A DNA stretch of 64,000 nt from positions 665,297 through 729,296 of the forward strand of contig NW_024881521.1 in NCBI RefSeq assembly GCF_019059575.1, in the 5' to 3' direction. How positions within the stretch are numbered: the first letter of the stretch is position 1; each line of letters opens with the position of its first letter. Both the position numbers and the translations under genes were made by a program. The notes beneath the pieces were generated by a model, which was not told the origin of the DNA, did not search any database, and saw only the letters and a program-made list of their open reading frames with translations. The DNA is from Amphibalanus amphitrite. Taxonomy: Eukaryota. Positions 5,576 to 57,476 of this stretch are shown here, piece by piece.

Positions 5576-7370
5576 TCACTTGAGCAGCATCTTGTTGACC
5601 TCGGGCGTGAAGAACTTCATCTTTCCCTCTCCACTGCGACCGGCCAGCTCGGCGGCCGCCTTGATGGCGGTGACGAGCTGCGCCAGCTCCGGAGTCAGGT
5701 GCGGCAGGTCGTCCTCGGAGGGGCGGCGGCACCGCTCCGGCTCCGGCTCCGGCTCTCCCTCGGTTCCCTCCGGCTCGGCGCCCTCCTCCTCGTCCGAGCT
5801 GCTGCTGCTGTCGTCACCGCTGCTGTCGTCGCTGCTGCTGCTGTCGCCGCCGCTGTTACTGGACGAATTGTTGGCTGTGGGCAGAGGAGAAGTGGTCAAT
5901 TGTAATAAGGCTGGTCTTCGGGATGTTCCCAGGTGGCCCAGCAATAAAGCCGGCCGGCAATGGGCTTAGGGCTGGCTAAAAAGTCGGTCACGAAAGCGGT
6001 GTGAAAAAGGAAAAGTAAGTAGTTATGACTGAAAACTGAGCATAATTTTCAAGACATCGACTGTTGACGTTATAAAACCAGCGCTGAGTAACATTAGCCC
6101 TGCATACACTCTTGGCTGATTCAACTCACTGTTGGACGATGACGAGACCTTCCTGGCGGCGGGCGGGGGCGGCGGTGACGACCGCTCGGCACCCCCTGTC
6201 GCCGGCGACGAGCCGGCCTGGCGCGCCGCCGCCGCCACAACGTGGGCGATCGTCTCGTCCATCGAGTCGCGCGAGCCGTCATGACCGTTGGTCTGGGCGG
6301 TGCCATTCGTGGGGGCCTCCGCGGCTGGAAGGAGAGAAGATACGCGTCAGTTTATAATTCAAGTATGGATATGGTCACTGGAAGACGTGGGATGCAGACA
6401 GAGAATGAGGGAAAAGACAGGGAAGGACACATTAATCCGTCGGGAAAATCACAGAACGGGTGATTCCCTGTCGACCTGACACCTCAATTACTGCAGCAGG
6501 CAGCTTTGGAACGGGTAGCGTCCACAGCAGGAGCACGGTGACCTCATAAATCAAGGCACCGACTTTCTGACGCTCGACTACCCGCACTGCGTTATTTCGG
6601 TCCATGCCTCGCAACCTCGCAATCCCAACAACGGAAATGACCCTTTCAGTGGTGTTCGCTCAAGCAACGGCCGTTCACCTCCGCTTAAGTTGACAAAAAT
6701 AACACCAAGACGCCGCGCAGCAGACCGTACAGCCCGCCGTCTCCCCTAGCCCGACACCCACCAGCAGCTGTCCACGGCACTCCACTCCACACATTAATCA
6801 TTACATCCCAAAAAGCCCACATCTGAATCCGCGCCCACCGCGCATCATGAGTTCCAGTCCAATATAAGCGTGCCCTGACTTTAACTGGATTAGCGAGGAC
6901 ATTTGATCGTTTATGGGGTCATATAAATGGTTTACTCGATCATACTCTAGTCTCATAATCAGTACTCTAGATCATACTCGATCATGCCGAATAAAATCCA
7001 CAAATCCCAGCTTACCATTGACGGTCTCCGCCGCCGGTTCTGCCGCGGCCGCCGGTGGCTGAGCCGGGGGCGGCGTCTCGGCGGCCCGCTGCAGCTCTCT
7101 GTGCGCCTTCTTCTGCTCCAGCAGCTCCTTGACTGTCAGCGACGGCTTCTTCTTGAGCAGGCCGTCGATGGCGCGTCGTTTCTTCTTCTGTAGCAGGCTG
7201 GGGTCCTTCTTGGGCGGCCGGCCGAGCCTCTTTCGCGGCCGCTTCACACCGGGCTCCTGCTCCTCGCCAGTGGTGACGTCGTCGTCTGCGTCCGAGCTCA
7301 GCCGGCGCACCTGGCCGGGAGGGGGGGGGGGGGGAGGGGTGTCAGCATCGGCCGCTACCAACCGCGCCAT
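5576..7370 (-). CDS. Three-exon gene: AT-hook-containing, Ser/Asp/Glu-rich acidic nuclear-type protein (~282 aa)
   Basis: Exons on the minus strand are 7016..7370 (ATG at 7370), 6130..6324 and 5576..5874 (stop at 5576-5578). The donors are AATG|GTAAGC and ACA|GTGAGT. The acceptors are CTTCCAG|CC and CCCACAG|CC. All junctions are phase-1 consistent across three ORF-track frames (6972..7370, 6023..6262, 5576..5944). It has an AT-hook-like KRPRKRLGRPPKK, an acidic poly-Ser/Asp tract, and a C-terminal LTPELAQLVTAIKAAAELAG…FFTPEVNKMLLK. Confidence 0.55.
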
Positions 7371-13872: not shown

Positions 13873-15117
13873 ACGGTTACCATGGTTTCACTACGGTTAA
13901 TATAAGTTTACAATAAAAGAGTAAAATTGAAGGCCTATTTTTTCCATAAGCAGTCGATTAAAAGAAAAGCTTACGTGATAATTGATGCTAAATATTGCTA
14001 ACGATCAATGTTCCTTTGCAAAACATCGAATGTCCCAAAAGTTTCATCAAGTAACAAAAAGATGGATAGTGCTGGTTTGGATATTAAATGGAGTCTAAAA
14101 GAGGAAAACAATTGTCAATACCTACTGGAAATTTAAAACCAATTTTGACCAACAACTAAATTTTTCCGAATAAAAATGCATAATATTAGGAAAATAGCAC
14201 ATTTGTAGAACAAAATGCAGTTCGACTCTAAATTTAGCACTACCAAACATACAGCTCTTAACCTTCCTTTTCCGGTCGTGAGAGGTGAGTGGATGTGGTT
14301 AGGGTCTTCGTCCTATTGCTGATTTCTCAAATCGCTTGGAAATGTGCTTGTTCGTCAGTGGGCGGCTCTGATTGGCCATGTACGTGTGTTCCACTTAATT
14401 CCTGTAGTAGTTTCATTTAGAATTGCCCATGCTAAAAGAGCAGCGCGTCGTGTTTGTCTGTAAGTGCACGTTTTGATGTAGTTTCCATGTAACGATAAAG
14501 AAACTAGCGCTAGGGAGCCCTGCGCATGTGGAAGTGCAAGGAGGTACCTACTTTCGACTGACTTGTGTATGGCATTCCACTGACTGGTCGGGATCAGTGT
14601 GTTATTTTGGAGCTGAAATATCGCACTGGGGCCCTCTTACAGCCTTTGCCGGCGCTGCGCGCGCTGCTATCACATGTCAAATTTGTCTTCCATGGAGACA
14701 TCAACAAAGTTGTTTATCCAACACTACCACACTGACCCCATACATTTACAAAATGTGATAGCAGTGTGGTACCAGTGTCCAGTGAAACACTGCCCTGTTG
14801 TTGAGACGTGGAAGTGGCATGCTACATTAGTTGAGTTTATGAATTAAGGGATAGGGCTATGTATGGATGAATGTGTTAATGCATGCATCAACATCACAAG
14901 CCTTCCACTTACAGCTTGGTGATACCTACTGGCTCATGCTGCTTCTTGGCTGCTTGAGTCATGAGTGCTTGCCATAAATAATGCTCTGTCATAATAAATA
15001 AATAATCAAACCTCTGCCTGCCATAATACCATACCTCTGCCATAAATAATAAGGTATATGTCAAGTTTAGGTCCTAACTACAGTTGTGACGCTGTTGATA
15101 CAAATATGTAACAGCAA

Positions 15118-22438: not shown

Positions 22439-25069
22439 ATGGGAGCCTACAAGTACATGCAGGAGTTATGGCGCAAGAAGCAGAGTGATGTGATGCGTTA
22501 CCTGCTGCGCGTGCGGATGTGGCAGTACCGCCAGCTGAACAAGATCCACCGCTGCGTCCGGCCCACCCGCCCTGAGAAGGCGCGGCGTCTCGGCTACCGG
22601 GCCAAGCAGGGTATGAGCACTGTGCTGTCAATGTTGGGTGTATTTGCATGTTGCTAACTCTGATACCTAGTAATATTATGGCCAATTGTTGAAGCTAGAT
22701 TTTAGTAATGTGTAAGTTGGTGGAACTGGAGGATGCTGCCAGCTACTTCCATTATGCTATTGAGAATGTTTCTTCACACTCAAAGGATAATATGCATTCT
22801 TTCTCTGTGTAAGGACCGCATTTTATTCATAGTGTTGTCTTAAGGAGAGAAAGTACAGCAACTGACGGCTTACCAACCTGGCTCATGTTGCATATTGGGC
22901 CGGGGTGGAGCTTGGACCACATTTGTATTTTGCACCCTACTGCCTTCATGTAGCCATCAATTGTTAATTTGCCTAGTCTGTTGTCCATATTTATTCATCT
23001 TCAAAATGAAAGATGAAGTGCCAAGTTTGACGGTCGTTTTTCCGTTCCCAGGATACGCCATCTACCGCGTTCGCCTGCGCCGCGGAGGCCGCAAACGCCC
23101 GGTGCACAAGGGCGCCACCTACGGCAAGCCGGTGCGCCAGGGAGTGAATGAGCTGAAGCTCAACATGAACCACCAGTCGGTGGCCGAGGGTCGCGTCGGC
23201 AAGAAGTGCAACGCGCTGCGTGTGCTCAACTCTTACTGGGTTGGCCAGGACGCCACCTATAAGTACTTCGAGGTGATTCTCGTCGATCCCGCGCATAAGG
23301 TGAGCATAGGGTATGATTGGTGGTTGAAGGGGTGGAATGTTTGATTCGTGGATGGGAGAGCTGAGGGAGGGCGATCGCGATGATGCTGATAGGATTTTTA
23401 TCGGGGTCCGCGGCAGTGGTGCCGATTTTTTGATGTCTTTATCGTTGGTACGATATTTCTTGTTCATGGGCGCGTTTCTTCCATATATAGGACGCATTTA
23501 GCGGTGCCGACCAAGTTCGATTAAAGGTAGTGTGCCACCTTTGAAAGATTTCCCATTTTATTTTTCCTAGGATAAGAAGCTTCTGTTTTTACCTAATATC
23601 GCAAAAAAAAATCAAAAATGGGCCTGGAATAGTGCCTTTTTCGCCTAAAAGTTTTTCGGTTTTTAGATATGTATAACAACTGTAGTGGGCTCACCTGCAA
23701 ACAGGCGTCGGGCAACAATCGCGAATGCGGCGCACTTGTGACAATAAGCAAAGGTCATTATAGTGTTACGACCATACGACGTACGGGAATGAGTTATCAG
23801 CTGTCTAATCGTAGACAACACAATGTCGAGCCTTAAACTGTAAGCCCGTATTGGTATTGTTTCGTTTATTTGGCTGTCAAACATTATTTATGGTTTGAAA
23901 TATGATTTTATGTAAAATAATTGATATGAAAAAGCCGTCTTATAAGTTATGACCCCATTTCACAACACGCAAGTGGCAGAAATGACAATGATCAGCTGAC
24001 GCATTGTTCTTGGCCGAAGTCAGAGCGCGCGGCCCGACGCACCACGCGTATTTGGAAATTCCGACCTCGACGAGCATCAGAAGCCACCTAACAGGCGTGT
24101 TCGAAACCGCAGGAGATGATGATGAACGGGTTTATCGAAACTTGATTGGATGAGCATATCGGTAATAGCGATTTCAGTGTGTGCATTTATTGTTCATAGT
24201 GGTGTGAAATGTGGTTGGGGTACGACCGACAACCCGTCGGGGCGAATTTCGCACTGGGGTACTCAAAATTTGAAGAATTTAAGACGTTTCCATGAGTTTT
24301 GAAGGTATGGATAAGTTCTAAAAATCCGGTTCTCCTTATCTGGGCCATTATCTCCATACGGTCCAAGAAAGCTGGCACACTACCTTTAAATGTCGTTATT
24401 TTTGTTTTGGAACGGGACGTCATAGAACCTTATTTCTTTCTCAGTGTAAGGACCACATTTTATCTATAGTGTTGTCCTAAGGAGAGAAAGTACAGCAACT
24501 GACGGCTTACCAACCTGGTCCATGTTGCATATTGGGCCGGGGTGGAGCTTAGACCACATTCGTTTCCTGGACTCATCCTTAACGCTGTCATTGCCGACTT
24601 CCGAGAAGTTGTCTTTTCAGCAGATGGGAGATACGAATCGTTCCTGCTAAGGTTGACGTGATTGCGGTAGGATTTGGTCTCCTGGCTGTTCCTCTCCTGA
24701 GCTTTTTTCAATGATCCAAACCTACTTCTTGTTGAGAAGCCAGAATGTTCGATGTTTGCATCACTACTATTTCACGTCCTTCGCCGAGTCGCCATAACGC
24801 ATGACCATATATATCCCCGCCCGCCGCTCTCTCCCACCTCGACCCGACTACTGACGCCCGTCTCTCCTCTACAGGCCATCCGCCACGACGCTAAGATCAA
24901 CTGGATCTGTAACGCCGTGCACAAGCACCGCGAACTGCGCGGCAAGACCTCGGCCGGCCGTAAGCACCGCGGCATCGGCCACGGACGCAAGTTCAACAAC
25001 ACCAAGGGTGGCTCGCGACGGGCCAACTGGCTGCGACGGAACACGCTCTCGCTGCGCCGCAAACGTTAA
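22439..25069 (+). CDS. RPL15: 60S ribosomal protein L15 (eL15), 204 aa, three coding exons
   Basis: Exons are 22439..22610, 23052..23299 and 24875..25069. The donors are CAGG|GTATGA and AAG|GTGAGC. The acceptors are TTCCCAG| and CCTCTACAG|. The translation [32 protein letters not shown]…AKQG|[17 protein letters not shown]…DPAHK|[40 protein letters not shown]…RRKR* is colinear with eL15 over its full length. The acceptor TTGTCTTGTTACAG 16 nt upstream of the ATG suggests an upstream 5'UTR-only exon. Confidence 0.92.
22795..22925 (+). ncRNA. Intron-1 copy of a ~125-nt paralogous element; candidate box H/ACA snoRNA
   Basis: It is ~90% identical to the copy at 24432-24560 in intron 2 of the same gene. 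It has a 5' hairpin (CTTTCTC…GAGAGAAAG), a hinge ACAGCA (ANANNA), a second GC-rich hairpin, and an ACA 3 nt from the conserved end (GGACCACATTT). Confidence 0.35.
23525..24385. mobile_element. ~860-bp TTAA-flanked MITE with a 13-bp TIR (AGGTAGTGTGCCA) inside RPL15 intron 2
   Basis: TTAA lies at 23521-23524 and 24386-24389. A perfect 13-bp inverted repeat abuts both TTAAs. No coding capacity was found. Confidence 0.4.
24432..24560 (+). ncRNA. Intron-2 copy of the same candidate H/ACA snoRNA-like element
   Basis: See 22795-22925. The substitutions between copies preserve the 5' stem (CTTTCTCTG/CAGAGAAAG-type pairing retained). Confidence 0.35.
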
Positions 25070-27659: not shown

Positions 27660-30600
27660 AGCCTGGTAAATCCGCCGCCCCCGGCCCCCTGAGTGCGCCC
27701 TCTCGTCATGTGGTGCAACTCCGGCGGCCCGTGCCGCGTGGTCCGCCCGCCCCGTGACCGGCCGTGGTGTATGCTCAATGATAGCAGGTCCTGTAGAGAA
27801 TGTCGTTATCAGTGGGCAGTATTGGGTGCGCCAGGGGGCGGCTGCTCGGAGTTGCACTGCACTGACGTTTGGACGTCCCGGTCTCTGAACGTGTCATGTC
27901 AGAGGACCGTAGTTTCTCCATCAGAGACCCCGCAGAAGGTGTGTGAGTGTGCATGTGTGCGTGTGTGTCTGTCGTCCTGTGTCCGCCCCTGCTCGGGTCC
28001 GATAGCGGAATGCGGGAGTGGGCGTGTCGAGATCGGTCGGGCGGGCTGTGTGGTCACACGGCTCATTGTGGTATAGGCTGGGGCTCAGTGGGCGGCAGAC
28101 GGTAGACGCTCAGGTGAGTATATCGGTCCCTTGTCTTTTACTGTCTGATTGCTAGTCCAGGCAAATATGTCGACCTCCAGACTGACAACTGGGTACTGAA
28201 TGTCCGACCTTGGTATGACTATCTCCCATAACGAGTAACGACGCCCTCCCCCTGATTGCCCCGCTCAGGTCGTGTCGCCGTATAAATTGTACCGTGTCGC
28301 TCTGTTCTGTTTATATTCGCAATCGCTGTGAGTTATACATTGCACAACGTGGTGGTCCCTGTGCGCTGGCGGTTGTCATGTGGATATTTCACCACCATAG
28401 TGCAAGCTGCCAGCGTTGGGCGCCCTGCTTATGCTAAGAGATCGCAAACTGATGTGCTTGGACAACATCATTATAAAAGTTTCTATTCCAGCCTACTTGT
28501 GAAAGGATATGTGAATCTTGGGACGTATAAGGCATCGTAATTATTTCTGAAGATAAAGTAGTCTGGAACTTTTATTGTGTTTGTAGTTGATACGATACTA
28601 CATAAATATCTTTCATTTTTACAGCTGCCATTGTGATCGGTCCGACCAAAGTTCGCCGAGCTCCGTTTTAACTTTTACTGCCTCTACACTCTACAGCCCT
28701 GTGTCCCGCCGCTGCGGGCGGTCTGTGCGGCAGCGGCGCCGTCCGCAGCGTGGCCGCCGGGCCGTGACCGTCCATTCCAGGCTGGCGGGACTCCCCGGGC
28801 TGTCAGAACTGTCCTACCCCTCCCCCGGACCGAGCCGGGCTGGCGCTGTCACCGCTCCGTCGCTAATAGCCCCCACTGACGCGGCCGGCCGGAGCGCTGC
28901 GGTCCCTTGCAGCGGGCAACCAGAGGTCATGCTTCTGCCGGGGACAGACACCGGTTGGACTGGTATGAGGTGTGATCAAGTCCAGCATAGTCCGACAGAC
29001 TGCAGACTGGGACGACGTTCAGACTGTCTCAGTGCGGGTACTGTCCCAGGCTCCAGAGTTCCAGGTCTGAAGCTGTGGATCCCGAGTCGGCGTCTTTTCC
29101 ATGGCCAGGTCGTTCTGAATGCTAATCAGTGGCCTAACATTGAGTCCATGTCTGAGCAGGCTGCATGAAGTATTGACCCTGTCTGAGCCAGCCATGACGG
29201 TGCGAGTCTGGGCTATTCACGGAAACGCCTCCGGGCGGTAACATCATTACATTGCAGGTTCGGGGAACCCGTGAGCGGCGTCACAGGTGTCCTTGATAAG
29301 CATAAGGTCTGGTGGCTACATTACTCCTGTTGGTAACCATTTGCGCCTTGCGGCCAGATAATGTGTAGTTGCGCTGCCAATATTCCCCAAACTCTTTGAG
29401 GAGCAGCGGTGCTGGCTGCAGACAGCTTCGAGCTCCTTATCAGATGTCGAGATGTCCTCTCAGTGGGGTGCTGTCCGCGATAGACCTTGACGTCTCAGCT
29501 GCTGAGCTTTATCAAAAGGCTCTGACATCTGACATCCGGCGCTCGCCCCGTCGTCCGTGTGGTAGGAGCTTATGCTCACAACTCTCAGGCCGGTTGCCGT
29601 GCTGACTTGGTTATGATCTCATCCATCCGCCTCATCTATATTTATAGTCCACGCTCCTCGAAGTGCGCCGCTCGACGTTGAGCAATCCGGCCGCTCGTAC
29701 GAGCCTCGACCACCACTGCAGCGCTGGCCGGCTTCCATCTCCGGCCGCGGCCTGTCCGCACGCTGCCGGGATGAGGTGATCCGCATACCTACCAAAACCG
29801 CCTGCAGTGCGTTGGGACTTCCCCAGCCTCCCAGAGCCGGAGCTGATTCACGGATTTGCCCAATGCCATCTCATCTGGCGGATGCCCGCCCTGGCCGGGC
29901 GGACGGCGCCGCCCCTCCGCGCGGTTGCGCCACCTCGTGTCCGTCGACAGAGGGCGGTCTGCCGGTCCGACGGCCGCCGTCCGAACAGCACAGTCGGGCG
30001 AGCCGCCGACTGGGCCGGCTGCGTACGGAAGTACGGGACGGACGGCAGCCGACTGTACGGACGGTGACGGGTCGGTCGGTGTACGGATCAGGTGAGCCCC
30101 GGGGACTGCCGAGCTGGCTGATCCGCGATCTTACTACGAGGGTGCCGTGAGGGCTGGGGTTGGAGCCAAGGCTGCTTTACCACTAGCGGTGTTGGGTTAG
30201 GACGAAACTCGGTTTCAGTGGTCTTTGTTTGGGTCGGTAACCCAGGTAACAATCGGCGTGCCTGGTTCTATCGGAACCCTAGATCTGACGCACATATCAC
30301 AGGATGTGGAGTCGGTTCACCCTCGTTCGCACTGTGGTGCTATGCTATTCCGCCGTAGCTGTTGTGACGTGTCGTCCGATGACCTTGAAAGCACCCAGCA
30401 GCAGCCCGGCATGGCGCCGGGTGGGCCGCGCAGCCGGACCCCTGGCTGCTGAGCTGCAGACAGTGACAAACTATCGTCGGGTGACTGGCGAATGGCGAGT
30501 GGATCCAAGCACCCATCCACCCGCCTGAATGGCATGCATTATGATTAGATATACCTATCATATAATCCAAGAAAGTATGGAAGGTCAGTTGCCTGAACTC

Positions 30601-32760
30601 CAGCGCTTCGCAGTTCCCGGCTACTCTTCTTGGGTCAAGTTTGCGGCCGTCTGAGTCGCATCACGGTCCGTAAACCCTGAAATGGCCAGATCCAGACGGT
30701 TGGCCGTCGGGCTCAGATGTCCGTAGCGCCAGCCGTTCAATACTCACCGTCCCATGCGGAGCTGGTCCGATAGGCGGCCGGTCGGTCGTCTGTTTGGGCC
30801 TGTCGCTCTGACGTCATAGCTGACGTATACGACGGAAATTCCACCGCCGATATGGGGATGCTGGTGGAGAAAAAGTGGCTGAGTTTGCTCTAGGGTGACG
30901 TCATCAGGCACCAATAGCTCGGATCGCGAGTTGGTACTTGGTAGAAGCAGTTTCTGTGGAGCGGATCTCGATAACAGCCGTCTCCGGTTGATGCCAGCTC
31001 GAAGCAGCTGCACTGAAAACGCAATATTAATTGCAATATTTATGCAAACGAAACTCATCAATAGGGACAACCAAAGTGGGGTGTTTTACAACACCCGTAA
31101 TGTAAAACGCCCCGTTTGCAGGGGTCTTGCAAAAGCTCATTCTTGCCGGAATGCAACATCCGAGTGCCTTGCATATTATTTTGTTCAATAATCTGAAGAT
31201 AACACTTTAACAAAATACCCAAAGACGCATGGTGAAATAACCGGTTTAGCGGTGACACACCGTTTTTCCTTAATGGGGTCGTTTTGGACGGTTCTCCCCT
31301 CCCTATGTGTTCATTTGGTGTTTCTTTGAAAAGCATGCCAATGAAGGGTATTGACTGTATTCAGGGACTTCGCCCCCCCCCCCCCCCCAAAGTAGCACTC
31401 GCTCGGTGAACCTGCCATGGAGATCGCATTCATGCCACCATTATCGACCTGTGCCGACGTGCTCCCACCCATTCCCTTCACCTGACCCGCCGCCCCTCCC
31501 CTGGTCTGGTGACCCGCATCAATTAGGCACCACGGGGTTGTCACGTTTACCACACCCAACAGCGCGGCCCGACCCCACGGCCGGTGCTCCTAGCTGGCGT
31601 GTGGTCGTCCACAATCCATACAGGGGTGTATTGACGTGTCGTTAGCCTACACGGACGGTGGTGGCACCCGTCGGGCCCTCCGAGGCCACGTGGCGTTACC
31701 AGGACGGCGGGCAAACATTCACGGATTGGTACCGGTACGTACGGCCGGTGGCCCAGTCTAAGTGTTCGTTCTGGTCTGAGCCGACGGTAGACGGTGCCGG
31801 TGGGGTGAGGACAGTAAAGGACAGCAGACGGTTAATACTGCACGGAACACGGAACAGTGCACTGGTGCACTGCGAATGCTGAAATTGCTGTTCGATCAGG
31901 AGGAACAGGAATCGCAGATGGCATGTAAGACCCCATTGACTAGATGTTTTCCTGTGCTTGTCGACAGCTAACGTGTTGTGGCTGATCCTTTTACGGGTCA
32001 TGAATTTAACTGCTCTCTTCAAATTCGTGCTTTATTGTGACGCACTGGTAACGTATGTCGTATTCGCTCGTCAATTTATGTTTCCCGTTCTCCACACTCG
32101 TGGTTCGTTATCGCCCAGTCGGCACCCGACCATCTGTCCAAGTACCCCCGTCGGCCCGCGGCCGTCTCTCACAGCTATCCCGTAACTCCTCACATGAATC
32201 GGCGGCTCCCTGCAGTTGGCCTCCCATCGGGCCGGCCGATGACTGGACTTGAAGACTGGCTGGGTGCCAGGGCTCGGCCAAACTGGGATGTTTGTCCTCT
32301 GGCCGGCCGGCCGGCGGGGCAGGTGATTCGTACCCAGACCCGGGAGCGGCAGACGGTGGCGGGGTGTATGCACGGTCACGTCTTCTGTGCCGTGTTTCAG
32401 ACTCTGTGTAGTAAGGCGTTCGTGCCAGGGAGTGTGAGCAGTGTGGTCGCGGATCGGTGTGAGCCATTGTATATTGTGTCGCGGGGGCCCTTATGGCCTT
32501 GGACGACCTGCAGCTGCTGAACGAAGCAGCTGAAGGTAGGACAGCCGTGAGCGGTGAGTGTGGGGTGTATCCGACACCGGTAAGTACACCTCGTGTCTTT
32601 TGCTCCGCAGTGTCAGTCAACCCGTGAGCTAGGAGCTGGCGTTTGTCTACGATATGTTTTACCCCATTCGGCCAGCATCTCCGTACCTATTAAGTGTTAA
32701 TGTCGTTTGTCTTATGCATCTGCCTGTCTGACCGCCCACCTCCCTCTCACAGCGATCAAG

Positions 32761-35700
32761 ATGAGTAAGAAGGACAGTTCCAGTTCGTCGGACAGCCTGT
32801 TCCGCATCCCTCCGCACTACTATGTGCACGTGCTCGATCAGACGGCCAACGTCACCCGGGTCGAGGTCGGACCGCAGACCTTCATCAGGAAGGACAATGA
32901 ACGGTAAGTGGGCGTTCGAGCGGCATCTCAGACAGAGACAGTCGGGAATTGGAGGGATTGAAGGGTGGGGTAGATATTCTCATGAGTATTCTACGAGCAG
33001 TATGTTCCGTAGCGACAATGATGCAAAAGTTGCTCATGAACGTCGGCTAGTTGAAGAGTGTATTTCCCAGTCTTTGTGTCCGCTGTGTGGGCGGGTCGGC
33101 CATATTGCCGGCTCGTCGGAGAGCCGGGGGGTCGCGCCGCGCTGGAGCCGGGACCGGGGATGGGACGCGCCATGTGGCCGCTCTCCGCCACACCCTGGAT
33201 CGATACGGAGAGCGCCCGACATTTCGGCGGCGTGTCCAGGCCCGAGTTCACCCGTCCGACTGGGGATCGGACGCTGCGGCCGGGCGCCATCTGTATGGGA
33301 GATCGGGTACTAGTGCGGCTGGGAGCTGCCAAGCTCTCATGGTGTAGGTCAGGGCAGGATAGGTGGCGCAGCGGGCCGAGGAGCTCGGGCTTCAACTCCC
33401 TCGTTTTGCGGTCACTGTCAATAACGGTGACCGTAGAAGAGCTGTGCTTGTCTAATTCTATCGTATAGTTTCCCGTCTCGGTTTCAACCAAAATGTGATG
33501 ATGTGCTCCTCAAACCCGCTAATGTTTCGAGACTTATTATTGGCCGTCTGTCCTGACCCTGTCCCGCTCCGTCTCCAGGGTCATCGTCGGCCCGAACGCC
33601 ATGGTGGTGGTGCCGCCGCGCCACTACTGTGTCGTCGAGAACCCGGTGGTGCGCGGCGAGGACGGTCAGGTGGTGTGCGACGCCAGCGGCCAGGCGCGCC
33701 TGCTGCACGCCGACACGGAGGTGCGGCTGCACCAGGACCCATTCCCGCTGTACCCGGGCGAGAAGCTCAGCTCGGCCGTGCTGCCGCTGAAGGTGGTCCC
33801 GCCCAACAAGGCGCTCCACCTGCGCGCGCTGCGCGAGTTCAAGGAGGGGGAGGTGGTGCGCTCCGCCGGCGATGAGTGGCTGTTCGGGCCGGGCACCTAC
33901 GTGCCGCGTCCGGAGGTCGAGGAGGTGGCCGATATCAAGGCCATCATCATCGGGCCGAACCAGGCGCTCCGACTGCGGGCACGACTCGAAACCACCGACT
34001 GGAAGGGCCAGAAGCGGGTGGCCGGCGAGGAATGGCTGGTGACCAGAGTCGGCGCCTACATGCCCGGCGTCTACGAGGAGGTGGCCAAGATGGTGAACGC
34101 TCACGTGCTGACGGAGAAGACGGCTCTTCTGGTGCGCGCCACTCGCACCTTCACCGACAGTCGCGGCGTGCGCAGGAAGAACGGCGAGGAGTGGCTGGTG
34201 CGCTTCGACGATATGGAAACGTTCATCCCAGACGTGTACGAGGAGGTGGTGGAGGAACGCGAGGTGACCACCCTCACCAGCCGGCAGTACTGCGTCATCT
34301 GCGACCCGGTCGGGCCGGACGGCAAGCCGCAGCTCGGCCAGCGTCGGCTGGTGCGCGGTGAGAAGTCGTTCTTCCTGCAGCCCGGTGAGACGCTGGAAGA
34401 CGACGTCCGCGACAACTACATCCTCCAGGAGAACGAGGCGCTGGTGCTGCGCGCCGGCGAGGCGTTCACTGACAACACAGTGACGCCGCCGGTGACGCGC
34501 CGGCCCGGAGACCGCTGGATGGTCACCGGGCCCGTGGAGTTCGTGCCGCCCATCGAGGTGGAGGTGGTCGTCCAGCAGACGGCTATCCCGCTCGACCGCA
34601 CCGAGGGTATCTACGTGCGCAACAACCGCACGGGCGAGGTGCGCGCCGTCTGTGGACAGACCTACATGCTCACCCAGGACGAGGAGCTGTGGGAGAAGGA
34701 GCTGCCCGCCAGCGTGGTGGAGCTGCTGCGTACCGACGCGCTGGCCGACCGCGGCGGCTACCGGGAGCTGAGACGGTCAGCGACCAACAAGAGCCATGAC
34801 GAGTTGAGCGACCGCACCCGCGTCATCACCTACCGCGTGCCGCACAACGCAGCCGTTCAGGTCTACGACTACAAGGCGAAGCGGTCGCGCGTTGTGTTCG
34901 GCCCCGACCTGGTGATGCTGGAGCCGGACGAACAGTTCACGCAACTCTCCCTGTCCGGTGGCAAGCCCAAGAAGCCCAACACGATCCGGGCGCTGTCGCT
35001 GCTGCTCGGACCCGACTTCTGCACTGATATTGTCACTGTCGAGACGTCCGACCACGCGCGTCTCTCGCTGCAGATTGCCTACAACTGGCACTTTGATGTC
35101 GGCAACAAGACTGCCGAGGATGCGTGCAAGATCTTCAGCGTGCCTGACTTTGTGGGCGACGCGTGCAAGGCGATCGCGTCTCGTGTGCGCGGCGCCGTGG
35201 CGCAGCGACCATTCGATGACTTCCACAAGAACTCGGCCAAAATCATCCGGCAGTCTGTGTTCGGTCTGGACGACGCTGGCAAGGTGCGCAAACAGTTTGT
35301 GTTTCCGCAGAACAACCTTGTGGTCACCTCGATCGACATCCAGAGTGTGGAGCCGGTGGACCAGCGGACGCGCGACTCGCTCCAGAAGAGCGTCCAGCTG
35401 GCCATCGAGATCACCACCAACGCTCAGGAGGCGGCCGCCAAGCACGAGGCCGAGCGCACGGAACAGGAGGCGCGTGGCCGACTCGAGCGGCAGAAGATTA
35501 AGGACGAGGCGGCCGCGGAGCAGGCGCGTAAGGAGCTCGTCGAGCTGCAGACGGCGTGCGCGGCCATCGAGAGCACCGGTCAGGCCAAGGCCGAGGCGCA
35601 GAGCCGCGCCGAGGCGGCCCGCATCGAGGGAGAGGCGGCCGTGGAGCAGGCCGGCCTGAAGGCGCGCGCCGCCAACATCGAGGCCGAGTCGGAGCTGGAG

Positions 35701-36018
35701 CGGCTGCGCTCGGCGCGCGAGGCCGAGCTCAAGTACACCGAGGAGAGCAACCAGCTGGAGATCGCGCGTTCCAAGGAGATGGCCAACATCGAGATCGAGA
35801 AGTTCCAGCAGATGGTGTCGGCGATGGGCGCCGAGACGTTGAAGGCCATGGCCACTGCTGGCGGCGACCACCAGGTGCGCATGCTGCAGAGTCTGGGCCT
35901 GCAGTCCACGCTCATCACCGACGGACGCACTCCCATCAGCCTGCTGAACACCGCCCAGGGCCTGGTGGGACTGGGCCAGGCGGCCGGGACCGAGTCGGCC
36001 GTCCAGCGGCCGCGCTAG
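32761..36018 (+). CDS. MVP: Major vault protein (MVP), ~860 aa, two coding exons
   Basis: Exons are 32761..32903 (ATG; donor ACG|GTAAGT) and 33579..36018 (acceptor TCTCCAG|G; stop TAG). Exon 1 ([47 protein letters not shown]) matches the MVP N-terminus. Exon 2 carries the MVP repeats (…GEEWLV…), the shoulder domain and the C-terminal coiled coil. Long stretches are near-identical to vertebrate MVP (KSFFLQPGE…, [35 protein letters not shown]…[10 protein letters not shown]…[22 protein letters not shown]). The ORF-track 'M' at 32707 is TTG. Confidence 0.93.
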
Positions 36019-36478
36019 GCCGCAGAGCGCCGCGCGGCGCCACGCGACTAACTGCCCAGGTGGTCCGCCCGACTAACTGCCCAGGTGGTTGGATTCCTGG
36101 TCAGCCGAGATTTTGCACGGTCTCCTCTGTGATTTTGAATTGAAGACATCCCAGACTGGAAGAGAAGAGATGCCAGTACAAGACGCGTCTCGTACAATTT
36201 TTTGTTTTTGGAAGCGATTTTCCACTGTCTGACGCCTACAACCAGCGAAACCGTGAGCCGTGCCACCAGATTTTTGCCGGGACGAATTACGGTTTAATTT
36301 AATCTTCCAACCGCAGAGTCTAGTCTCGATGTATGAGAGTGGGTAGGTTACCTGTCCTGTGTTTTCCATAGTCACGGGTGACGGCTGGGCTCCTAGCCTC
36401 CTAACAGCACTCACAAGTTCCACTCCACTAGACCTGGCGAGTGCTGCAGGTAGTTTCGCGAGTGCGGCGTACGTTTAA

Positions 36479-37647
36479 CCCGCGCCCCGTAGGGGGGGGG
36501 CCGAAACGGCCCCCCTGTCCTTTTCGGTCGATATCTCCTAAACGGCTGGAGATATCGCCACTAAACTTTCAGGACCCCTCCGGGCATCAATTTTACACAT
36601 TGTGACCAAAAATTTTTCCAGAGGCTGTGGTAGGTTGGCCACAAATGACGTCAGAGTGACGTCATGTTCTGTCATTTTCGACCGAAAAAAGACCTTCGCG
36701 AGAAGACCTGTCAGGCCTACAGCTTTGAAGATACAGAAAAATGATCAAGACATAAAAGGTGTAGAATTGACAGGGCTACAAAACTGCTATCTCGGATTTT
36801 TGAAATTTTTGAGTTTTGATCCCCAAAAATCAAAAAAGCATTTTTTTGGATATATTAGCCAAAAAATCCAAAAAGTTTTTTGAGTTTCGGAAAAACCGGA
36901 ATATATGTGATAGTACCTACCGTCTTCTATCTACATACCAAATTTCAGATCGATACCTCGTTTTTTGGCCAAGTTATAGCGAAAAAACTGTTCAAAAATG
37001 ATGACGTCAAATTTTCAAACTCAATTTTTGGCAATTCTAGAAATCGTAGAGCAAAACAAAGACCACCATTAGACTCCCCGTGACGAGCTGCATCGAATGG
37101 ATACCCATTTTATGCAAAAATATCAACTTTGAAATTTGACCTAATTTGACCTGACCTTGACCTGACCTTCACCAAAACGTGACCTAGGCTGGCCCCAAAG
37201 GCTGCCTAACCCACATAATCGCATTTATCATGTAAAATGGACCATAAAACATGTATCACACGACACATTCATATTGTGACCCCCGGTGACCTGACCTCGC
37301 TGTGACCTGACCTGGTATCAGTGACCTCAGATAGCAAAGTATGTGTTTGACGAACAATATACCATCGATGGTTTTCAACAAATTACCAATTTACTCGATT
37401 TCACAGCACATTTCTTGAATTGCCTGTGAACGGTGAAAATCTGACCTTTGACCTGACCTGTGACGTCATCGGTTTGACCTAGGTCAATGAAATTTGGTCA
37501 CAAGGTAGTTCCCGGGTAGGGCTATCAAACGCCGTTTGAATTTTGAAAATCGGCCGGTAACTTTCCGAGATCTTAGGGGGGGGCCGAAACGGCCCCCCCC
37601 CCCCCCTACGGGTGGTAGGGTCCGCCGGTAGCCCTACGGGGCGCGGG
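36479..37647 (-). mobile_element. ~1.17-kb TTAA-flanked non-autonomous TIR element (piggyBac-like target preference), CCCGCGCC family
   Basis: The termini are TTAA|CCCGCGCCCCGTAGGG…GGCCGAAACGGCCCC (36475…) and …CCCTACGGGGCGCGGG|TTAA (…37651). The interior has GACCTGACC/GGTCAGGTCA palindromic motifs and a TGACGTCA motif. It is the same family as, and inverted relative to, 56300-57476. Confidence 0.7.
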
Positions 37648-56299: not shown

Positions 56300-57476
56300 C
56301 CCGCGCCCAGATGGGGTCTGCCGAGCAACGCGGTCTGATGGGGGGGGGGGGCATTTTGGCCCCCCCCCTCAGATCTCGAGAACCACACAACATAGCGACA
56401 AGCGGTAAACGGTGTTGGATAGCCCCAACGGGGAACTTCCTTGTGACCCAATTTCATTGACCTCGGTCAAACCGATGACGTCACAGGTCAGGTCAAAGGT
56501 CGAATTTTCACCGTTTACAGGCATTTCAAGAAATGCGTTGTAAAATCGAGTAAAATGCATTTCATTGAAAATCATCGATGGAGAAATGTTCTTCAAACAC
56601 ATATTTTGCTATTTGAGGTCACTGATACCAGGTCAGGTCACAGAGGTCAGGTCACTGGGGGGGGGGGGGTCACAATATGAAAGTGTCGTGTGATACATGT
56701 TTTATGGTCCATTTTGCATGACAAATGCGATTATGTGGGTCAGACAGACTTTAGGGCCAGCTTAGGTCACGTTTTGGTCAAGGTCAGGTCAAGGTCAGGT
56801 CAAGGTCAGGTCAAATTAGGTCAAATTTCAAAGTTGATATTTTTGCATAAAATGGGTATCGATTCGATGCAGCTCGTCACGGGGAGTTCAATGGTGGTCT
56901 CCGTTTTGCGCTACGAGGTCTAGAATTGCAAAAAAATTGAGTTCAAAAATTTGACGTCATCAATTTGTAACAGTTTTTTCGCTATAACTTGGCCAAAAAA
57001 AGAGGTATCGATCTAAAATTTGGTATGTATATCGAAGAGCGCAGGGACTATCACATATATTCCGGTTTTTTCGAAATTCGAATTTTTTTGGAATTTTTTT
57101 GAGTTTTTCTAAAAAAATCATTTTTTTATTTTTGGGGGTCAAAATCCACAAATTTCGGAAATCCGAGATAGCAGTTTTGTAGCGCCGTCTTTTCTCTACA
57201 CAACCACATAAAGAACTTTAAAATTGCTTGCTAACTGTAGAATTGGTGAGCGTTTCAAGATGTCATGTTTTTTGCTCATTTTTGCTCGAACATGACCTCA
57301 GTTTGACCTCAATAACTCCTGACCTGAGGTGACCTGTGACTTGAAATTTTGTGTGAAGGTGTCAAATTGATGCCCGGTAAGGTACCAAAAATTTGGCGGC
57401 GCTGCGCGCCGCCGTTTTCTCGCTATTTAAGAAAAACCACAGGGGGGGCCAAAATGGCCCCCCATCAGGGCGCGGG
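56300..57476 (+). mobile_element. ~1.18-kb TTAA-flanked CCCGCGCC-family MITE, second full copy
   Basis: The termini are TTAA|CCCGCGCCC… (56296…) and …GGGCGCGGG|TTAA (…57480). The interior is colinear with, but inverted relative to, 36479-37647. This includes the conserved block …FEFRKNRNICDS…YQI(S/L)DRYL(V/F)FWPSYSEKTV… seen in ORFs 36816..37001 and 56960..57151. Confidence 0.7.

Follow-up and report, generated by a model that had tools for sequence, protein, structure and literature searches.

A barnacle gene for the major vault protein (Amphibalanus amphitrite): a retained first coding intron and probable 3'-biased loss of the introns downstream

The closest described relatives of the barnacle gene considered here code for the vertebrate MVP/LRP proteins (rat and human; PDB codes 4V60, 7PKZ and 9Z4W). 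The protein from Amphibalanus amphitrite shares with them the family, the Vault-repeat and shoulder architecture and a colinear cap region, but it is missing the Glu of the WLFEGPGT motif and its linker is divergent at around residues 430–460. Human MVP has a first exon upstream of the ATG, and the barnacle gene likewise has upstream leader exons. [quoted passage not shown]

The MVP genes of copepods, which like barnacles are non-malacostracan crustaceans, are also intron-poor (LsMvp1–3 of Lepeophtheirus salmonis and TCALIF_04082 of Tigriopus californicus). Each LsMvp transcript has three exons (PMC11219742), and in LsMVP1 an intron is placed right at the start of the CDS, with the start codon alone on exon 1, an arrangement comparable to the barnacle leader intron. 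All ancestral coding introns are absent from L. salmonis MVP1, which carries one lineage-specific intron of 54 nt in phase 0 at the position of barnacle residue 160, where none of the other taxa has an intron; the MAKER model of the Tigriopus gene is single-exon. The copepods do not have the phase-2 intron at residue 48 that the barnacles keep, and their intron loss is equal to or greater than that of the barnacle. L. salmonis has three MVP paralogues, while in barnacles a single gene is seen, along with a second, identical copy in the assembly at RefSeq. A TEP1 homologue is reported from L. salmonis (PMC11219742), and MVP was found in the cement secretions of both barnacles (PMC4619306, supplement) and sea lice (PMC11219742).

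The barnacle gene also resembles the classical cases of 3'-biased intron loss, in the exact removal of an adjacent block of introns, in the retention of the 5'-most introns and in being an expressed, conserved gene. It is the same in kind, but the block is large (at least 11 introns) and the event is old. A model of reverse-transcriptase-mediated intron loss with a 3' bias was reportedly put forward by Fink in 1987, and Mourier and Jeffares (2003) and Roy and Gilbert (2005) are said to have surveyed such losses.

The MVP gene model spans 32761..36018 on the plus strand of the window, the 64-kb stretch of DNA that was analysed, and comprises two coding exons with a CDS of 2583 nt and a product of 860 amino acids (Table 1). 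The product is 100% identical to the RefSeq “MVP-like isoform X7” of A. amphitrite (XP_043230411.1 / XP_043246395.1), and the gene model and this identity bear out the first-pass description of a single coding intron with 812 codons in one exon; exon B begins with 1 nt of codon 48, followed by those codons. The sequence of the coding intron is unique within the window.

Pfam recognizes all five MVP domain families in the 860-residue protein: the vault repeats, far over the gathering cut-offs, as Vault (four stretches, 1.5e-63), Vault_2 (two stretches), Vault_3 and Vault_4, and MVP_shoulder (PF11978) at residues 525–642 (1.9e-53). The MVP chains in the PDB give a single colinear alignment (query 9–848 to chain 3–853, E = 0), in which residues ~640–848, the cap-helix and cap-ring region, align without large gaps, also to the 140-residue C-terminal fragment 9z5n_B. 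Domain content and alignment together identify the gene as that of the major vault protein of A. amphitrite, the canonical vault-shell subunit, colinear with its vertebrate counterpart as originally proposed. Assembly into a 78-subunit vault particle is likely in view of the high identity over the regions that form the interfaces. The Rfam scan of the 64-kb window matched zero families, neither a vault RNA nor an intronic snoRNA being present among its results.

Table 1. Features of the MVP locus, in window coordinates; ^ marks a splice junction here and in the text
Feature	Position	Strand	Remarks
Isoform X5 first exon	27896..27938	+	In-frame ATG to donor aag^GTGTGT
Isoform X1 first exon	29863..30091	+	In-frame ATG to donor cag^GTGAGC
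Isoform X4 first exon, 3' end	31918..31924	+	ATGGCAT^GTAAGA; rebuilt CDS matches X4 protein exactly
Proximal alternative first exon	32493..32553	+	From in-frame upstream ATG; two donors
Leader segment of exon A	32753..32760	+	8 nt, acceptor (cag^CGATCAAG) to ATG
Coding exon A	32761..32903	+	ATG 32761 to first 2 nt of Arg48 (MSKKD...KDNE-R); same as RefSeq X7
Sole coding intron	32904..33578	+	675 nt, GTAAGT...CTCCAG, phase 2 inside Arg48
Coding exon B	33579..36018	+	2440 nt, aa 48–860 and TAG stop

Intron positions, quoted here as barnacle residue/phase, come from an in-house exact spliced protein-to-genome mapper, with L. salmonis solved by hand. The MVP genes of the chelicerates Limulus and Centruroides contain 14 coding introns each, those of the millipede Chamberlinius and the hemichordate Saccoglossus 12 each and that of the cnidarian Nematostella 16. 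Nine sites are common to the cnidarian and the arthropods (153/1, 228/0, 307/0, 485/2, 551/2, 598/0, 669/2, 750/0 and 813/0) and two further sites (~351/0 and ~401/0) are common to bilaterians; the barnacle gene has none of these, that is, at least 11 ancestral introns are absent. Exon B covers every site of the 11–15 introns that other animals carry there. The intron at 48/2, on the other hand, has the same position and phase in Amphibalanus, Pollicipes, Limulus, Centruroides, Chamberlinius and Saccoglossus (6/6 bilaterians). At 12/12 ancestral intron sites inspected, the two barnacle proteins align without a gap, and the indel nearest to the lost sites is a one-residue deletion located 3 residues 5' of 153/1. 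This mapping against MVP orthologues, which the first-pass annotation had proposed as a check, identifies the barnacle coding intron by position and phase as the retained ancestral first coding intron, and marks at least 11 ancestral introns downstream of 48/2 as lost without a scar.

The pattern has two features of cDNA-mediated block loss: of the ancestral coding introns only the first survives, with all downstream ancestral introns absent, and no codons are inserted or deleted at the 12 former sites. Amphibalanus MVP is most likely a functional single-locus gene shaped by reverse-transcriptase-mediated, 3'-biased intron loss. In an ancestor of thoracican barnacles, a cDNA copied from the spliced MVP mRNA, primed at its 3' end, would have recombined with the resident gene. 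All introns beyond the first coding one would have been erased exactly; that intron, the leader intron and the promoter region would have remained in place. The intron pattern argues for cDNA recombination as the mechanism and suggests one loss event rather than several. The pattern may also stem from eleven exact deletions in the genome, each independent of the others and spread over several hundred million years.

Stepwise loss, in which at least 11 introns were removed singly or in small groups, through separate cDNA conversions or exact genomic deletions in a high-loss lineage, appears improbable. The copepod states are in its favor: they are related to that of the barnacle but non-identical, with L. 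salmonis missing 48/2 and having the new intron at residue 160 and Tigriopus having none, which proves that at least some further intron changes were independent. Barnacle genes also average 4.84–5.79 exons, under many animals (PMC8220330). However, the complete loss is already common to all three barnacles sampled, and the survivor is exactly the 5'-most intron, as predicted by one 3'-primed conversion but unlikely under position-independent loss. Moreover, the MVP introns of the millipede Chamberlinius have shrunk to ~60 nt, yet 12 of them are kept, showing that intron reduction alone does not remove introns.

The same end state, with contiguous 3' introns missing and 5' introns kept, could be produced by a semi-processed retrogene: reverse transcription of a partly spliced transcript in which the leader intron and intron 1 remained, placement of the copy at a new site with a promoter acquired or carried along, and later loss of the intron-rich parent gene. 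The flanks leave room for such a move, as the tblastx comparison of the barnacle MVP loci (Amphibalanus, Pollicipes and a third barnacle contig, L006) gave only sub-30-bit noise with no conserved flanking genes detectable, and the neighbor genes differ between the loci compared. This course is nevertheless unlikely, since it needs more steps, namely the exact retention of the two 5'-most introns, promoter capture and parent loss, and the leader exons, spread over 4.9 kb, resemble a native promoter region. A poly(A) tract or target-site duplication is not visible either, though neither would be expected to survive from so old an event.

The preferred reading, recombination of a cDNA with the resident gene, preserves in a weak sense the processed-copy origin considered in the first-pass annotation, as introns would have been erased through a cDNA. 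In the strict sense such an origin does not fit: all parent introns would be gone from a processed retrocopy, whereas the ancestral 48/2 intron and the conserved leader intron are both present, there is expression as well as purifying selection, and Pollicipes has the same structure. No run of at least 8 A occurs within 2.5 kb downstream of MVP (the densest A window, 19/30, is 2 kb off), and the 3' end of the gene shows no target-site duplication. A dead retrocopy or pseudogene is rejected on the grounds of an ORF intact in three species, of dN/dS of 0.12–0.16 and of the detection of peptides.

A second, intron-rich MVP locus combined with a lack of expression of the present one had been named as the sign of a retrocopy. 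No second copy, not even a divergent one, is present within the 64-kb window, and no other A. amphitrite MVP cluster was found among the best 120 homologues per search, save a mis-modelled copy of the same locus; the homologues listed have at least 63% identity to the barnacle query, and a divergent intron-rich paralogue below that level would lie outside them. Indels in the assembly have led to a faulty GenBank model, KAF0307365.1. Each RefSeq MVP isoform has two accessions on two contigs, indicating a second locus with identical products in the RefSeq assembly, which is probably a haplotig.

The first-pass annotation had further suggested that MVP merely reflects a genome poor in introns, pointing to other long single-exon genes of the window as the same pattern. 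Two other long uninterrupted ORFs of 1053 and 975 amino acids are indeed present, but one is TE-like (DUF7869) and the other mucin-like. Genes of both kinds are usually single-exon, and the two ORFs have no bearing on the question. RPL15, located 7.7 kb upstream of MVP in the same window, codes for 204 amino acids in three coding exons with two coding introns, and A. amphitrite genes have 5.79 exons on average, the mean exon measuring 280 bp (PMC8220330). Together these figures contradict genome-wide intron paucity, the chance of which is close to nil.

The leader intron ends at the acceptor CTCTCACAG^CGATCAAGATG at 32752^32753, 8 nt before the ATG. This acceptor, predicted from the start, is real: it fits all six RefSeq isoforms recovered from X1–X7, every mapped N-terminally extended isoform joins there, and the pyrimidine tract and cag 8 nt before the ATG are kept in all three barnacles. 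Upstream of it are at least four alternative first exons, at ~27.9, 29.9, 31.9 and 32.5 kb, which span 4.9 kb; the most distal is that of X5, 4814 nt upstream of the acceptor. One of the two donors proposed earlier, GCTGAAG^GTAGGAC at 32535^32536 in the proximal first exon, is the X6 donor, while the other, CCG^GTAAGTAC at 32579^32580, is a perfect consensus donor but is used by none of the isoforms mapped; if spliced, it would make a 32-codon upstream ORF with a TGA stop overlapping the main ATG. Isoform X3 uses a different donor of the proximal first exon, GTGAGCG^GTGAGTG at 32553^32554.

The RefSeq models X1, X3, X4, X5 and X6 read the leader exons as coding, with 5–79 extra residues. The X1 extension, 76 residues rich in Arg, Pro and Gly, looks like a translated leader. 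As the N-terminal extensions are not conserved in the two other barnacles, the leader exons probably act as leaders, which makes the earlier functional guess of a non-coding first exon a reasonable one. The leader intron it implied is real, but the leader is not one exon; there are at least four alternatives, coding according to RefSeq. Isoforms X1 and X3–X6 are probably leader-exon variants rather than real protein isoforms, and their leader ATGs would not be the physiological MVP start. MVP is transcribed from several alternative leader exons, all spliced to the one conserved acceptor ahead of the conserved ATG.

The two-exon MVP CDS is also found in Pollicipes pollicipes (locus L001, exon A at 13921..14063) and in the third barnacle contig, L006, with 92% amino acid identity (exon A at 6107..6249), and the ORF is intact in all three barnacle species. 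The dN/dS of Amphibalanus MVP is ~0.12 against L006 and ~0.16 against Pollicipes, values that show a gene under purifying selection. GC3 is 0.89.

RefSeq already contains this gene with its protein and exon structure, and a published phylogeny of ecdysozoan MVPs includes the one from this same scaffold (PMC11219742, supplementary file 2); neither the gene nor the kind of event is new. Vault biology gains little from the barnacle structure. It is a very clean example in which a single ancestral 5' intron survives and at least 11 conserved introns are erased. Among non-malacostracan crustaceans the intron state of MVP might be used as a structural character in phylogeny, and since the gene was lost altogether in Malacostraca, Branchiopoda and winged insects (PMC11219742), it would be one of few structural characters available. 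It is conceivable, if rather doubtful, that the intron block was lost once, in the common ancestor of Thecostraca and Copepoda, and that copepods dropped 48/2 later; if true, this single loss would count as a rare genomic change in favor of the contested “Hexanauplia” grouping.

MVP is unmentioned in the main texts of the barnacle cement papers examined, and within the searched supplements it appears only in file 7 of Wang et al. 2015. There, mass spectrometry of A. amphitrite cement samples identified a transcriptome contig coding for a long internal stretch of MVP (PMC4619306, supplementary file 7), and these peptides and this contig show that the Amphibalanus gene is expressed. With MVP reported in the cement of both barnacles and sea lice, a correct gene model is useful for work on barnacle adhesion.

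The major vault protein (MVP) gene has a complete two-exon CDS, the exons being separated by a 675-nt GT..AG intron of phase 2 that falls inside Arg48. The 860-aa product matches all five Pfam MVP families (Vault, Vault_2, Vault_3, Vault_4 and MVP_shoulder) and aligns with MVP chains from the PDB as a single colinear block (query 9-848 vs chain 3-853, E = 0). A search of a large protein collection returned a 100% match to the “major vault protein-like” product of the acorn barnacle A. amphitrite, and RefSeq isoform X7 (XP_043230411.1 / XP_043246395.1) is exactly the 860-aa sequence. The two-exon model, the Pfam and PDB matches and the RefSeq identity bear out the first-pass annotation, which had described an MVP gene with one coding intron; the exact identity to X7 indicates that its facts were right, yet that the gene had been annotated before. 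A published phylogeny of ecdysozoan MVPs already includes the MVP of the same RefSeq scaffold (PMC11219742, supplementary file 2). The locus is a known, annotated gene and the evolutionary event of a known type, tidy rather than surprising: the observation was confirmed, while its interpretation held only in part.

Features of the MVP region, in window coordinates
Feature	Position	Strand	Remarks
Uninterrupted ORF, 1053 aa	17462..20623	+	sole Pfam match DUF7869, E = 6e-07; TE-like
RPL15 (ribosomal protein L15, 204 aa), 3 coding exons	22439..22610, 23052..23299, 24875..25069	+	same window
X5 alternative first exon	3' end 27938	+	isoform mapped to window
X1 alternative first exon	3' end 30091	+	isoform mapped to window
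X4 alternative first exon	3' end 31924	+	isoform mapped to window
X6 alternative first exon	3' end 32535	+	isoform mapped to window
X3 alternative first exon	3' end 32553	+	isoform mapped to window
MVP CDS, complete, 2 exons	32761..32903 + 33579..36018	+	gene model
Uninterrupted ORF, 975 aa	51773..54700	-	Pfam Mucin-like repeats, E = 1.8e-16

The MVP loci of seven further species were compared, their exons being mapped with an exact protein-to-genome walker. There are 16 coding introns in the cnidarian Nematostella, 12 in the hemichordate Saccoglossus, 14 in each of the chelicerates Limulus and Centruroides, 12 (each about 60 nt) in the millipede Chamberlinius, and one in each of the barnacles A. 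amphitrite, Pollicipes pollicipes and a third represented by a contig (92% aa identity). Projected onto one alignment, nine intron sites are common to the cnidarian through the arthropods, and two additional ones to bilaterians. All six bilaterians, both named barnacles among them, have an intron at the first site, barnacle residue 48 (phase 2), and the two-exon CDS recurs in Pollicipes and the third barnacle, with introns of 331 and 1050 nt, respectively. From this projection and the shared two-exon CDS it follows that barnacles have kept only the 5'-most ancestral coding intron and lost all downstream ones (at least 11). The barnacle protein is gap-free in the alignment at every lost site. 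The Glu of the WLFEGPGT motif, invariant in the seven other species compared, copepods to cnidarian, is missing from both barnacles (WLF-GPGT, about 33.89 kb); the deletion lies three residues 5' of the lost intron site 153/1.

Genome-wide intron paucity, one of the two explanations offered initially, is contradicted by RPL15, a same-strand gene 7.7 kb upstream of MVP with introns of 441 and 1575 nt, and by the published figures for A. amphitrite (5.79 exons per gene, exons of 280 bp on average; Ip et al. 2021, PMC8220330), against which the 2440-nt MVP exon is an outlier. The long single-exon neighbors cited as showing the same pattern are uninformative on intron density, being TE-like and mucin-like; the 1053-aa ORF is probably the “transposase” and the 975-aa ORF probably the “secreted protein” of that description.

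The other explanation, a processed-copy origin, was not borne out as far as a free-standing retrocopy is meant: barnacle MVP retains the leader intron and the first coding intron, neither of which such a copy would have. No poly(A) remnant was found after the gene, and no second MVP copy within the 64-kb window. Recombination of the MVP gene with a 3'-primed cDNA, an established model of intron loss, would erase the downstream introns and spare the first coding intron, and the barnacle pattern is the signature expected from it. Directly after the stop codon, presumably in the 3' UTR, is an exact 20-nt direct repeat, CGACTAACTGCCCAGGTGGT (36045..36064 and 36070..36089, 25-nt spacing). A dispersed repeat of ~850 nt, presumably a transposable element, occurs as two inverted copies, 84% identical (36763..37604, + strand, and 56340..57195, - strand), the former beginning 0.75 kb downstream of the stop.

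The MVP ORF is intact in all three barnacles, with dN/dS of about 0.12 vs the third barnacle and about 0.16 vs Pollicipes, and its GC3 is 0.89. A transcriptome contig for this MVP was identified by mass spectrometry of A. amphitrite cement (“mortar”) samples (PMC4619306, supplementary file 7); it spans a long internal stretch, AGDEWLF to TIRALSL; one substitution was noticed, and the tail is frameshifted. The database contains just one further A. amphitrite MVP protein, KAF0307365.1 (741 aa), derived from this locus as it stands in the older assembly GCA_009805615.1 (VIIS01000581.1, L002 10001..13539), where frame-shifting indels are present; owing to these errors it is mis-modelled, and spurious introns and garbled stretches interrupt it internally. 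Every isoform is entered in RefSeq twice, under accessions of the XP_0432304xx and the XP_0432463xx series that belong to two contigs, so the RefSeq assembly contains a second copy with identical products, probably a haplotig.

RefSeq lists isoforms X1-X7, and the six compared (X2 falls outside the 90% identity cluster) vary at the N-terminus only. When mapped onto the window, the five extended isoforms, X1, X3, X4, X5 and X6, all join the acceptor ctctcacag|CGATCAAGATG at 32752|32753, precisely the one predicted for the leader, and X7 begins 8 nt further on, at the main ATG. The first predicted donor is likewise exact, as the end of the X6 first exon, while the second, 32579|32580 (CCG|GTAAGT), has a perfect consensus but is used by no reconstructed isoform; splicing from it would place the upstream ATG at 32493 at the head of a 32-codon ORF whose TGA overlaps the main ATG. 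In RefSeq, in-frame leader ATGs are read as N-terminal extensions of 5-79 residues. These have no counterpart in Pollicipes or the third barnacle contig, where the sole upstream similarity is the first coding exon itself, and the X1 extension, rich in Arg, Pro and Gly, is translated GC-rich DNA. The three barnacles have in common an MSKK start, a pyrimidine tract and a cag acceptor placed 8 nt ahead of the ATG, and a purine at -3 is present for the main ATG and absent for that at 32493. On these sequence features we read the extensions as alternative leader exons and not as real protein. The “non-coding first exon” proposed earlier is thus upheld in spirit, but there are several, and the public annotation treats them as coding. 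A homopolymer of ~15 C (31370..31390) lies between the alternative leader exons.

MVP is reported to have been lost in Malacostraca, Branchiopoda and Pterygota and to be present in barnacle and louse cement, and the LsMvp transcripts of the salmon louse Lepeophtheirus salmonis to have three exons each (PMC11219742). In LsMVP1 (L009 3001..6223) exon 1 ends with the ATG, its only codon, and the donor follows directly (ATG|GTAAGT); the gene has neither the 48/2 intron nor any other ancestral coding intron, and its one 54-nt intron lies at a site where no other species examined has one. The MAKER model of Tigriopus MVP is a single exon (QI string). Given the LsMvp, Tigriopus and barnacle gene structures, an intron-poor MVP is common to copepods and barnacles, through either one ancestral event or parallel events, and its intron loss is possibly usable as a phylogenetic character. 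Several full-length copepod-like MVP ORFs are also found on metagenome contigs of 10-77 kb.
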